Source of the DNA: a virus
Lineage: Duplodnaviria; Heunggongvirae; Uroviricota; Caudoviricetes
Reading direction: 5' to 3' (one strand)
DNA: 6,437 nt
Virus record (IMG/VR): IMGVR_UViG_2519899560_000004
Span: 1 to 6,437 of that record
Positions 3,001 to 6,000 of this stretch are shown here, in pieces (positions within the stretch are counted from its first letter, which is position 1; the number at the start of each line of letters is the position of its first letter). Made by a program: the position numbers.

Positions 3001-6000
3001 CGGCTTCCCACCAACTCAGCGATTTCAATGCTTGTCATTTTGATGGCATTGCTATTTATCAGCTCATTCATTGTCATGTCCTCTCACATTGAAAATTCAG
3101 CAATAAAAAACCCAGCCGAAGCTGGGTTTGTTAAGTTGTCAATTGTCAGTAGCGATGCAGTGAAGGCGGCAACTCTTTGTTCTTAAGCCTTTCCCATGCC
3201 AGAAGGTTCGTCGGCCCGTCAGGCTCATAAATATCTATATCCCGCGTGTGATTAATTAAAACGCCCCTCGCCCTCCCGATGATATACGAGAACTCATAGC
3301 CGTAGTCGTGGCATATGCCGGAATAGCCAGACTGAATCAGTTTTAATGCGGGATACAACTCACGGAACAATGCCTGTGAGCGGTTGGCATAATCCCACAG
3401 CCATACAAGGCTGTCTGTTTCTTTTGCGGAAAGCCCGTTGAGCTTCTTCTCTTGTTTGCCAGTATTTTTCTCGCACTGGCTGAAATAGCAGTCTTCCAGT
3501 TTTTCGAACACATCCCACGCCTGATCAGTTTCGAGCATTTTTGCGTGACGGGCTGCGCCGCGTTCTGTCCAGAGGATGAGGGAGCGGGCATTTTTACCAA
3601 CTAACCCGATTGTTTCGGGTCTGTTCTTAAACTCGCGTAATTCGTTTTTTTCAATTTTAAAGTAATGCTTTCCGGGCATGAATCGCGTCGTGTTGTTCAG
3701 AAAGTTATCAGAAATGTTTTTGATTTTTGTTCCGTAAAGGTGAGCCAACAGTTCAGTAGTAATTACGGGGATCTGGTTATAGGTAACAGGGGAAAGGTTT
3801 TCGACAGAAATTTGAACAGCCATAATGACCTCGCGTTTCGATTATTTTTACCTCGCCACCGTCAGGTGCTAATCATCGTGGTGGCGAACTGTGCGGGGTT
3901 AGCACTACCGGTCGAAACATCCGGCGAGCCTTTCGGCTCCCCCACACAGCCCGCCATAAATCGCGAATGTGACTGTGCTTAGCGCATAAAAAAACCGCCA
4001 GCGCGGTTATGCACCGTTTCGATATCCGGGGTGCTAATCCCGACGCCAGATTTTGCTGGCGCGTGAGGAATATAGCCCCGAATAAATCATCGCGTCAATC
4101 ACCTTGTTTTCCTCGCACGATGTCTTAGCCACCGGATATCCCACAGGTGAGCCGTGTAGTTGAAGGTTTTTACGTCAGATTCTTTTGGGATTGGCTTGCG
4201 TTTATTTCTGGAGCGTTTCGTTGGAAGGTATTTGCAGTTTTCGCAGATGATGTCGGTGATACTTCGTCGCTGTCGCCTCATGCAGCCCTCCTGACGCCCA
4301 GCCCGATCGCCATCAATGCCGCTTTGGATACGGTAGTAAACATCCGTCGAGGACTGATGAACGGTCGCCAAATCAGCAACATTGAGCCTTTGCTGTTTCC
4401 CTTCTTCTCCAGCCCTGTCGATGGTTCGATAAAATTAATCCGTCCATCAGTGATGATGCGAACTTCGTCAACACTCTCCAGAGCCTTGCTGAACCATCCG
4501 ACTGACATATCCTCTGGCACAAGCATAACTACCGTCTGTCGCTGTTGTATGCACTGCTCAGCGGCTTTTTCCACCCACGGCCTGATATTGCTGTACGGTG
4601 GGTTATTCCAGATTGCACCGTGGCTTACCCACTCAGAATTGAGCGCGTCGTCGGCCTCAGTTAGCCAGTGAGCACACAGAGCATTTTTGTCGCTCGCTGC
4701 CGAATCCAGCCAGAATCCAAACTCAATATCCAGTGCATCAAAAAGCCAAAGCGGCGTTTGCCAGCAGTCCTTGTTGTGTGCTGGCGTATTTGATTTGATA
4801 GTCATGCAGCCCGATCTCCCCATCGCGCTTTCATTTTTTCATTTGCAAATCGCCAGAATCTTCCTTTGTGATATGAGCTTTCGCCATTACAGCAACGACT
4901 AATTGACGAACTATCAAATCCTTCTCTGACAGCATCCATAGCTGCTTCATAATAAACCTCCTCCCCAGTTTTCATGTCAGTAGAAATAACAGCTTTACTG
5001 GCAGGATGGTCACCACTAAATTTACCTAGCGATATAGGTATTCTTCCATTTTGTTTATATCCGTGTTTTGAGTTTTCAGAATGTGATACCCATTCAAGGT
5101 TATCAGCCCTATTGTCATCTCTTCGCCCATTTTTGTGATTAACTACCAAGCCATCACAGAACCCTGTACAGAATGCTTTCGCAACTATCCTGTGGGCGCT
5201 GTATTTCTTACCGTATACCTTTATTTGAAGATATCCTGTCGACTTGCACTTGAATGGTTTTACACTAGTGCCATTAATTATTTTCTTATATGGCCTCTGT
5301 CTGGTTGATGTTACTGTAACTTCCCTCGTAATAGACCTGAAATTTCCTTTATTGCTAACCTGATAAAATGGAATCCCTTCGATATCTACCCAAACCTCAA
5401 TCATAATTCCTCCATTCGCTAAGATGAATTGAGTTCATGGCACAATATGCTTCTATGTAGTCCATTATTTCGGATATTTTTTTTACAGATAGAGTCGCCG
5501 TACTCTCTCTGATGTTTATTAGCTCACCTTCTAACCCTGATATAATCTCAGGGTGCTGGTTGGTTGCAATCTGCCAACCAGAAACGAATAACCCCTTCCA
5601 AAACTCAATATTTCTTGCTTTTCCGTGATATGTAGCCTTCTTACTTATTTCAGATAGCATCGCGTGAAGGCGTGCATTTTGCCGAATGCTGCGGTTGCGT
5701 TCCTGAATGGTTACTACGATTGGTTTGGTTGGGTCTGGAAGAATTTGCTGGATAGCTTGAATGGCGTTCTGCTGATGGATGGGGCTTCTTAGTTCAAATG
5801 TTAGTTTCCTCATCACCCTTAATCCTCTCGAAGTTCTTCTCGAAGTTTTTGGTGTCGAACACTGACCACCGACCATTATGAATGGCGTATGCACATGTCT
5901 TGTTTTCGTCCTGATAAACCACCCTTACCTTGCGATAAAACCGTGGCTTAATCTCTCTGAATATTTGCTCGCTCATGCTCACTCCTTCACTTTAAATCCA

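Follow-up and report, generated by a model that had tools for sequence, protein, structure and literature searches.

What is encoded immediately downstream of ninE in the tailed-phage sequence IMGVR_UViG_2519899560_000004? The stretch analyzed here, positions 1 to 6,437 of this IMG/VR record (6,437 nucleotides (nt), hereafter the window), carries on its minus strand, directly after the ninE stop codon, a promoter-like pair of hexamers, a hairpin and an intrinsic terminator. An earlier inspection made without database searches (the sequence-only reading) had read this arrangement as either a regulated leader or a small RNA some 75 nt long, with an ordinary terminator of the nin region as the alternative. 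Our analysis predicts that the unit is a gene for an IsrK-family small RNA, a catalogued kind and not a new one, and that it is followed by a C4-type antisense RNA and by ant, a gene for an antirepressor-type protein. With a probability of roughly 0.8, we consider that the IsrK unit opens a self-contained antirepressor switch of the phage P1 immI type, inserted between ninE and roi/ninG and working in the manner proposed below.

Results

The unit after ninE matches IsrK over its full length

We scanned the whole window against Rfam. The isrK model (RF01394) matched over its entire length (model positions 1-77) with 76.6 bits against a gathering score of 50 (E = 1.2e-15), and the match occupies 4062..3988 on the minus strand, exactly the 75-nt span between the predicted +1 (G4062, 7 nt past the -10 hexamer) and the end of the U-run at 3988. 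This agreement argues for the proposed small-RNA architecture, whose parts are all in place on the minus strand: the hexamer pair TTGACG-18-TATATT right after the ninE stop codon (4098..4069), the hairpin CGCCAG-N6-CTGGCG, one copy of a repeated motif and a terminator with seven U residues (Table 1). IsrK is known from the Salmonella prophage Gifsy-1 (Padalon-Brauch 2008; Hershko-Shalev 2016, PMC4825925), and position 4062 aligns with the +1 of Gifsy-1 IsrK, whose numbering reproduces the published C18, G28, G31 and A107. The two 5' hairpins and the Rho-independent terminator with co-variation that define membership in the family are found here, the stem of hairpin 2 being uninformative in this respect.

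The window encodes a C4-type antisense RNA and its paired target sites

Two further Rfam families match next to IsrK. The C4 antisense RNA (RF01695) scores 75.1 bits against a gathering score of 45 (E = 7.5e-14), and c4-a1b1 (RF03163), at 4075..4023 on the minus strand, scores 50.6 against 46.7 bits (E = 8.2e-11) and overlaps the 5' half of IsrK. The isrK, C4 and c4-a1b1 matches are all full length, adjacent and on the same strand. The C4 segment folds with -49.1 kcal/mol (z = -5.95). Each of the sites a1, a2, b1 and b2 is a 7-nt exact complement of its partner a' or b' in C4, and b2 is placed as in P1, where according to the annotation icd-ant translation is repressed through this site. As in P1, a CACCA-like sequence (GCCACCACG) comes after the 3' end of the basal stem of C4. 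C4 is reportedly released from its precursor by RNase P, a finding said to go back to Hartmann et al. in 1995.

These assignments give the repeated motif a function. Read as GATTAGCACC on the minus strand (4039..4030) and as GGTGCTAATC on the plus strand (4030-4039), with a second copy at 3866-3875, the motif is the a1/a2 target site of C4. The sequence-only reading had seen GGTGCTAATC but had missed both the C4 partner RNA and the motif's role as its target. From the homologies, the cassette is laid out as a1-b1-terminator-C4(b',a')-a2-b2/SD-ant, SD being the Shine-Dalgarno sequence, with the same architecture as the isrK locus of Gifsy-1, and IsrK is the a1-b1 element of a P1-type C4 system, an equation that is not explicit in the IsrK and APSE papers compared.

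In the minimum-energy fold of the 248-nt read-through RNA, a1-b1 is paired with b'-a' in cis, an arrangement that resembles the published inactive "structure A" of Gifsy-1 (PMC4825925). Whole-molecule duplex energies were barely better than those of shuffled sequences, both for C4 with IsrK (43/500) and for C4 with the ant leader (22/500); the method ignores intramolecular structure, and it was dropped in favor of site-level complementarity and co-variation. We also observed an alternative pairing for CGCCACC (3886..3880), which is the 3' strand of the basal stem of C4, with GGUGGCG (3860..3854). The resulting hairpin (3854-3886, minus strand) displays a2 in its loop, excludes the C4 fold and is present in the minimum-energy fold of the read-through RNA. 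The same region contains a 31-codon open reading frame (ORF; MAGCVGEPKGSPDVSTGSANPAQFATTMIST, 3862-3957, minus strand), whose AUG lies in the 5' end of C4 (3957..3955) and whose stop codon lies in the a2 region (3864..3862); the "orf45" of Gifsy-1 is its positional counterpart.

Promoter, terminator and pairing sites are conserved across related loci

To compare related loci, we used a homologue pattern whose only fixed parts were the hairpin 1 loop and the hairpin 2 stem; it retrieved 119 viral contigs, representing 83 distinct sequences, and many of their upstream contexts are not nin regions. The results given here concern columns that the pattern left free. Six of the seven base pairs of hairpin 1 vary on both sides of the stem, and pairing is kept in 99.7% of cells (57 distinct sequences), a degree of co-variation that none of the shuffle or slid controls approached. 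A strict terminator hairpin with T-run is found in 71 of the 83 loci, and several more qualify with longer loops; it occurs in 31 stem/loop variants, and the length of the RNA stays within 73-82 nt in 70 of the 71 loci with a strict terminator.

The promoter hexamers behave in the same manner. The -10 element stands at one fixed position relative to hairpin 1, as TATAGT (24 loci), TATATT (23 loci) or another TAnnnT-like variant, and most loci have a TTGnnn -35 element at a spacing of 17-18 nt from it. Around these fixed hexamers the sequences are unrelated, with 26 classes of spacer and 41 classes of upstream flank at ≤60% identity. The hexamers of the window score 10/12 in a consensus scan, the joint-best promoter-like site of the window, and align both with PisrK of Gifsy-1 and with the promoter annotated in P1 as P1c4 (P51b). 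That the hexamers are conserved at an unchanging distance and are homologous to those of these two promoters suggests that isrK has, as expected of its family, a promoter of its own, which would give a primary transcript of ~77 nt. The sequence-only reading had named loss of the hexamers where the terminator persists as one sign against a small RNA; promoter and terminator both keep their positions across the 83 loci, the hexamers in almost all of them, and the small-RNA interpretation withstands this test.

The covariation analysis that it had called for extends to the pairing sites. In 81 of 83 loci the downstream C4 contains the exact reverse complement of the a1 7-mer, as compared with 1 of 830 for the 7-mers of the other ten classes, and a second copy (a2) is present in 76 of the 81, usually ~30-35 nt after a'. 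At least 11 variants of the a site and 29 classes of b1 linker were found, each with a match in the C4 and the ant leader of the same locus. Exact complementarity of at least 6 nt links b' to b1 in 86% of own pairs versus 4.8% of foreign pairs, and b' to b2 in 94% versus 22%. The cargo gene that follows b2 varies in type: other loci encode Rha, Bro-N or KilA-N domains in the place of the ORF6N/P22_AR_C protein of the window, with counts of cargo types that are only indicative, as simple gene calling after b2 took wrong frames in the P1-like class.

One contig (IMGVR_UViG_2806310672_000003, locus L029, ~2350-5100) contains four tandem isrK-C4-antirepressor-like cassettes of ~850 nt each. All of its b sites differ, and there are three a-site sequences, of which UUUAGCAG is common to cassettes 1 and 4; the cargo genes are almost the same at their 5' ends. 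L029 looks like an array of mostly orthogonal RNA switches.

A separate complementarity was observed upstream of the start site. The sequence UCGGGG at 4077-4082 (minus strand), just 5' of the -10 element, complements CCCCGG/A, which forms the 3' half of hairpin 2. Some loci have a longer, co-varying version of this complementarity (for example ATATCCGGG with CCCGGATAT and AGTTCCGGG with CCCGGAACT), and it corresponds to the optional "third stem" of the Weinberg 2010 supplement. Such a pairing is possible only in transcripts begun further upstream, by read-through from PR, and might hide a1 in these transcripts.

The cassette is collinear with Gifsy-1 and with P1 immI

When the window, Gifsy-1 and P1 are aligned together, they are collinear from the -35 element to the start codon, through the hexamers, hairpins, C4, a2, b2/SD and ATG. 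The homology to Gifsy-1 spans the entire cassette (promoter, three hairpins, terminator, C4-like region, a2, b2/SD and antirepressor-type gene), and Gifsy-1 returns the same Rfam trio: canonical IsrK at 1838-1914 of the Gifsy-1 locus (L123), a C4 match at 1940-2023 and c4-a1b1 overlapping IsrK. The C4 match covers the published "orf45"/STnc1160, so that this region is the C4 homologue. IsrK measures 75 nt in the window and 77 nt in Gifsy-1. Several particulars set the two loci apart: the window cassette lies between ninE and roi/ninG, upstream of Q, whereas that of Gifsy-1 lies downstream of the Q-like antQ; a1 and b1 are UUAGCAC and UCGAAAC in the window as compared with UUGGCGU and UCACCG; b2 adjoins the SD of ant in the window and overlaps the SD in Gifsy-1; the small ORF encodes 31 amino acids uncoupled to ant, as opposed to 45 amino acids with an AUGA overlap; and the ORF6N and P22_AR_C cargo domains are unlike those of Gifsy-1.

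Experiments in Gifsy-1 bear directly on these shared parts. The isrK promoter gives rise to both a short terminated IsrK and an untranslated read-through isrK-orf45-anrP mRNA, and its deletion abolishes transcription and, in stationary-phase minimal medium, phage production (PMC4825925). Both halves of the sequence-only proposal, small RNA and leader, are thereby found in a single locus. IsrK supplied in trans raises anrP translation more than 100-fold, an effect lost in IsrK point mutants; its overexpression raises an anrP transcriptional fusion 8-fold; and induction by IsrK depends on the isrK locus being intact (PMC4825925). The pairs G28:C162 and G31:C159 were proven by compensatory mutations (PMC4825925). 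The IsrK of the window differs from that of Gifsy-1 at positions 28, 31 and 32, and each of these changes has its compensation in a' and recurs in a2. The pairs proven in Gifsy-1 correspond to a1:a' in P1 terms and are kept in the window through natural compensatory changes.

Our reference for the C4 system was immI of P1 and P7 with icd and ant (RF01695, RF03163; Citron and Schuster 1990). The P1 record (NC_005856) annotates, in this order, the promoter P1c4 (P51b), a1, b1, C4, a2, b2, icd and ant, and states that C4 binding to a2/b2 represses icd-ant translation; Citron and Schuster, as cited in the Weinberg 2010 supplement, proposed that a1/b1 compete with a2/b2 for C4. P1 immI has the same order of parts as the window (promoter, a1 in the loop of hairpin 2, b1, terminator-like hairpin, C4 with b' and a', a2, b2 at the SD) and the same logic, in which an antisense RNA masks the ribosome-binding site of an antirepressor operon. 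In contrast to P1, no icd-like ORF is found in the window cassette, where ant directly follows b2, and the host phage is lambdoid and not P1-like; neither a C1 operator nor a second promoter (P51a) of the P1 type was found in the window. P1 falls below the isrK gathering score because of the 12-nt loop of its terminator hairpin. This hairpin, between b1 and c4 (NC_005856 48283-48312, 284-313 of L122), consists of ACCGCA, a 12-nt loop, TGCGGT and ATTTTT, and its presence means that P51b of P1 could also yield an IsrK-like short RNA of ~80 nt.

Other phage systems resemble this arrangement in part. In phage P4, the CI RNA (seqA, seqB, seqC) is a small RNA processed from a leader that pairs with repeated sites upstream and downstream of itself, and SeqA was called a structural homologue of IsrK by the Gifsy-1 authors (PMC4825925); pairing in P4, however, causes premature transcription termination of replication genes and not translational masking of an antirepressor. 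The Rfam scan matched no P4-type family in the window. The sar RNA of P22 immI is likewise a small antisense RNA that holds off an antirepressor gene in a lambdoid phage, and the Ant protein of the window has the P22 antirepressor C-terminal domain. P22 sar is transcribed from the opposite strand as a true cis-antisense RNA, and the proteins Mnt and Arc also take part in the control of ant; the RNAs of the window, in contrast, are all on the same strand and would act through short repeated sites. Finally, records of APSE phages annotate an IsrK/C4 pair side by side, with an a/b labeling that differs again, and the APSE paper treats the two RNAs separately.

The cassette is an insert in a nin region

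The minus-strand gene order of the window (NinB, HNH/NUMOD4 endonuclease, Dam, NinE, the cassette, Roi-like with ANT/KilAC domains, NinG, NinH, Q) is that of the nin region of a lambdoid prophage of the Shiga toxin (Stx) type. In P22, Sf6, phage 21 and HK630-type phages, the match to our query is confined to the ninE part and ends at the ninE stop codon, ninE being followed there by ninF or ninX. The cassette is therefore an insert, with its own putative promoter and terminator. The 501 nt around the locus (3800-4300) are 100% identical to phage YYZ-2008, while the remainder of the window differs and is mosaic; the best full-length phage match to the window is Lahn2 (95.6% over 86%).

Table 1. 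Positions of the cassette elements and of ninE in the window.
Feature	Position	Strand	Basis and remarks
ninE	4099..4281	-	Pfam NinE, E = 8e-44; upstream neighbor of the cassette; TGA stop 4101..4099
-35 TTGACG	4093..4098	-	Consensus scan; begins directly after the ninE TGA
-10 TATATT	4069..4074	-	Consensus scan; 18-nt spacer to -35
IsrK-family small RNA (predicted), 75 nt	3988..4062	-	Rfam RF01394 isrK
Hairpin 1, GCGCCAG-CAAAAU-CUGGCGU	4043..4062	-	Predicted fold; 7-base-pair stem; CGCCAG-N6-CTGGCG core 4061..4044
Hairpin 2, CGGG-AUUAGCAC-CCCG	4027..4042	-	Rfam scan and fold; site a1 in loop
Site a1 UUAGCAC	4031..4037	-	Hairpin 2 loop
Site b1 UCGAAAC	4016..4022	-	Single-stranded IsrK linker; complementary to C4 loop GUUUCGA
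Intrinsic terminator AACCGC-GCUG-GCGGUU + U7	3988..4008	-	Consensus scan; stem 4008..3993, T7 3994..3988
C4-type antisense RNA	3877..3961	-	Rfam RF01695, full model
Site b' GUUUCGA	3912..3918	-	Hairpin loop of C4 (predicted fold)
Site a' GUGCUAA	3899..3905	-	C4 internal single strand adjacent to b' hairpin (predicted fold)
Site a2 UUAGCAC	3866..3872	-	Second motif copy, in ant leader
Site b2 UCGAAAC	3835..3841	-	Two bases from SD GAGG (3832..3829) of ant
Antirepressor-type gene ant, 225 amino acids	3146..3823	-	Pfam ORF6N 2.6e-20, P22_AR_C 1.3e-23; ATG at 3823
Terminator-like hairpin (9-base-pair stem) and T-run closing the cassette after ant	3108..3129	-	Consensus scan

Some further features of the surroundings were recorded. 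A homing-endonuclease-type gene of the HNH/NUMOD4 kind (200 amino acids; 4802-5404, minus strand) lies between ninB and dam, overlapping each by a few bases, and is probably a mobile insert in the nin region. Downstream of Q (455-1048, minus strand), the place where YYZ-2008 has stx is taken in the window by a gene whose product has DnaD_N and helix-turn-helix domains; the window therefore derives from a different mosaic prophage than YYZ-2008. In the YYZ-2008 record (FJ184280.1; L001, 4478-5160) the antirepressor gene is annotated as 390 nt only, with ambiguous bases and frame breaks, as opposed to the intact 225-codon gene of the window. A weak rsmX match (22.4 bits against a gathering score of 56) coincided with the terminator hairpin after ant and was rejected.

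A matching region was found in 696 of 5,426 complete Escherichia coli genomes, including many O157:H7 strains, with up to four such regions per genome. At the match, neither the 12 RefSeq E. coli records listed nor the YYZ-2008 record carries an annotated feature, noncoding RNAs included. In the literature on IsrK or C4 in Stx phages, IsrK is mentioned once in passing, C4 not at all, and we found nothing on the cassette; a preprint on the Pas small RNAs of pathogenic E. coli has no bearing on the locus. The Gifsy-1 IsrK paper (PMC4825925) draws a comparison to phage P4, and the term "c4 antisense" was not found in it.

Discussion

A proposed switch for antirepressor synthesis

Promoter activity, the two transcripts and trans-activation are carried over to this locus from Gifsy-1, and repression by C4 from P1, by analogy. 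In the resulting model, a sigma-70 promoter would fire independently of PR, and the majority of transcripts would end at the U7 terminator to give the 75-nt IsrK, while read-through transcripts would include C4 and the ant mRNA. Following the P1 paradigm, a' and b' of C4 would pair with a2 and b2, masking the ribosome-binding site of ant so that Ant is not made. IsrK, through a1 and b1, would pair with C4: in cis this pairing would lock the read-through RNA in an inactive fold, and in trans IsrK would compete with a2/b2 for C4 and free the ribosome-binding site. The ratio of IsrK to C4, set by terminator efficiency and promoter activity, would then decide whether Ant is translated and the prophage pushed towards induction. 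By the same analogy, IsrK would relieve a block of the P1 type, in which the ant ribosome-binding site is masked, and would not act by way of a coupled small ORF.

Evidence against the proposal and rival explanations

Several points weigh against this proposal. The promoter consensus scan is at chance level (9 sites in the window versus 9.0 expected from shuffles), and the 18-nt spacer exceeds the 17-nt optimum by one; the fold energy of IsrK does not stand out (z = -1.63; 12 of 200 shuffles fold equally well). Columns fixed by the search pattern are invariant by construction and many of the loci are close relatives, and the activity of promoter and terminator at this locus is predicted from homology. 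The Gifsy-1 authors attribute activation to the small ORF orf45 and translational coupling, not to C4 masking, and co-expression of the STnc1160 region with IsrK gave stronger growth arrest, which a simple decoy does not predict (PMC4825925). Moreover, an efficient terminator would keep IsrK always above C4, leaving the basal off state of Ant to be explained by the cis-paired fold alone, and the target of Ant could be the repressor of its own prophage or another one. The terminator scan, with 10 terminator-like sites in the window versus 6.7 expected, was not used as stand-alone evidence. Since the promoter scan and the fold energy are uninformative alone, the case rests on homology and co-variation: we observed family membership, the cassette architecture, conservation of promoter and terminator, and co-variation within a1/a'/a2 and b1/b'/b2.

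One rival is the strict Gifsy-1 model, in which IsrK acts only by opening orf45's ribosome-binding site, translational coupling switches on ant, and C4 has no role as a repressor. Mutation of the first AUG of orf45 or an early stop codon lowered IsrK activation in Gifsy-1, a tagged orf45 product was detected (PMC4825925), and the AUG in the C4 region is conserved, both as the ATG at 3957..3955 in the window and as AuGG in the Rfam C4 consensus. In the window, however, the stop codon of the 31-codon ORF lies 38 nt before the ant ATG, making ATGA-type coupling impossible, and across the related loci the ORF that begins at the C4 AUG ranges from 8 to more than 200 codons, with ATGA overlap with the downstream gene in only 6 of ~70. 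The Gifsy-1 authors themselves note that orf45 is conserved in its nucleotides but not in its peptide (PMC4825925); the region scores as a structured C4 RNA, and b2 lies beside the SD of ant in the window and overlaps it in Gifsy-1. We therefore regard the strict model as unlikely for the window. Somewhat less credible still is a purely cis-acting leader or attenuator, with a terminator regulated by, for example, C4 pairing in the manner of P4 CI RNA and the 75-nt RNA as a by-product. The IsrK unit is located in the 5' leader of the ant mRNA, the 8-fold rise of the anrP transcriptional fusion would fit such a role, and the Gifsy-1 authors raise both the analogy with P4 CI/seqA and the possibility that STnc1160 affects termination of IsrK (PMC4825925). 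Yet plasmid-borne IsrK activates translation at least 100-fold in trans in Gifsy-1, an effect abolished by point mutations (PMC4825925), and an attenuator needs no a2/b2 duplicates near the SD that co-vary with C4.

A role as an Hfq-dependent trans-acting RNA with host mRNAs as its main targets and the C4/ant link as secondary would be compatible with the proposed switch; the Rfam family description lists isrK as an Hfq-binding RNA, and prophage small RNAs with host targets are common in enterohemorrhagic E. coli. We consider it improbable as the main function: there is no known host target for IsrK, and its variable positions co-vary with its own C4 and ant leader, pointing to selection on local pairing. 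The alternative kept by the sequence-only reading, an ordinary tR-like terminator for PR with promoter hexamers arising by chance and no separate RNA, found no support. It would account for the shuffle-level count of the promoter scan, and the terminator does stand in the path of rightward transcription from PR and would also act on unmodified PR transcripts. Chance hexamers do not explain why the distance stays the same in 83 loci whose upstream contexts fall into 41 unrelated classes, many of them outside nin regions, nor the homology to P1c4 (P51b) and to PisrK, whose deletion silences the Gifsy-1 locus. Lambda tR2-tR4 would lead one to expect a terminator at a homologous position without a promoter; here P22, Sf6, phage 21 and HK630 share the ninE part only, and a conserved promoter precedes the terminator. 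We regard a terminator of this kind as the sole function of the unit as extremely unlikely, and favor the C4-based antirepressor switch.

Implications for prophage induction

Both kinds of RNA in the cassette were already known as Rfam families, with mechanisms studied in Gifsy-1 and in P1. The identity of IsrK with a1-b1, and of orf45/STnc1160 with C4, links two literatures without mutual citation. The diversity of the a and b sites raises a further, speculative possibility, doubtful on present evidence, that they form a combinatorial address code specifying which IsrK unlocks which antirepressor, and so enable RNA cross-talk or insulation between prophages. If so, cross-talk could start induction of an Stx prophage, and toxin production, without an SOS response. 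Antirepressors are a type of protein able to induce prophages without RecA; for this reason the cassette, which would control an antirepressor, is a candidate control point for the induction of Shiga-toxin phages, and its position in the nin region of Stx-type prophages gives it practical relevance to Stx-prophage induction.

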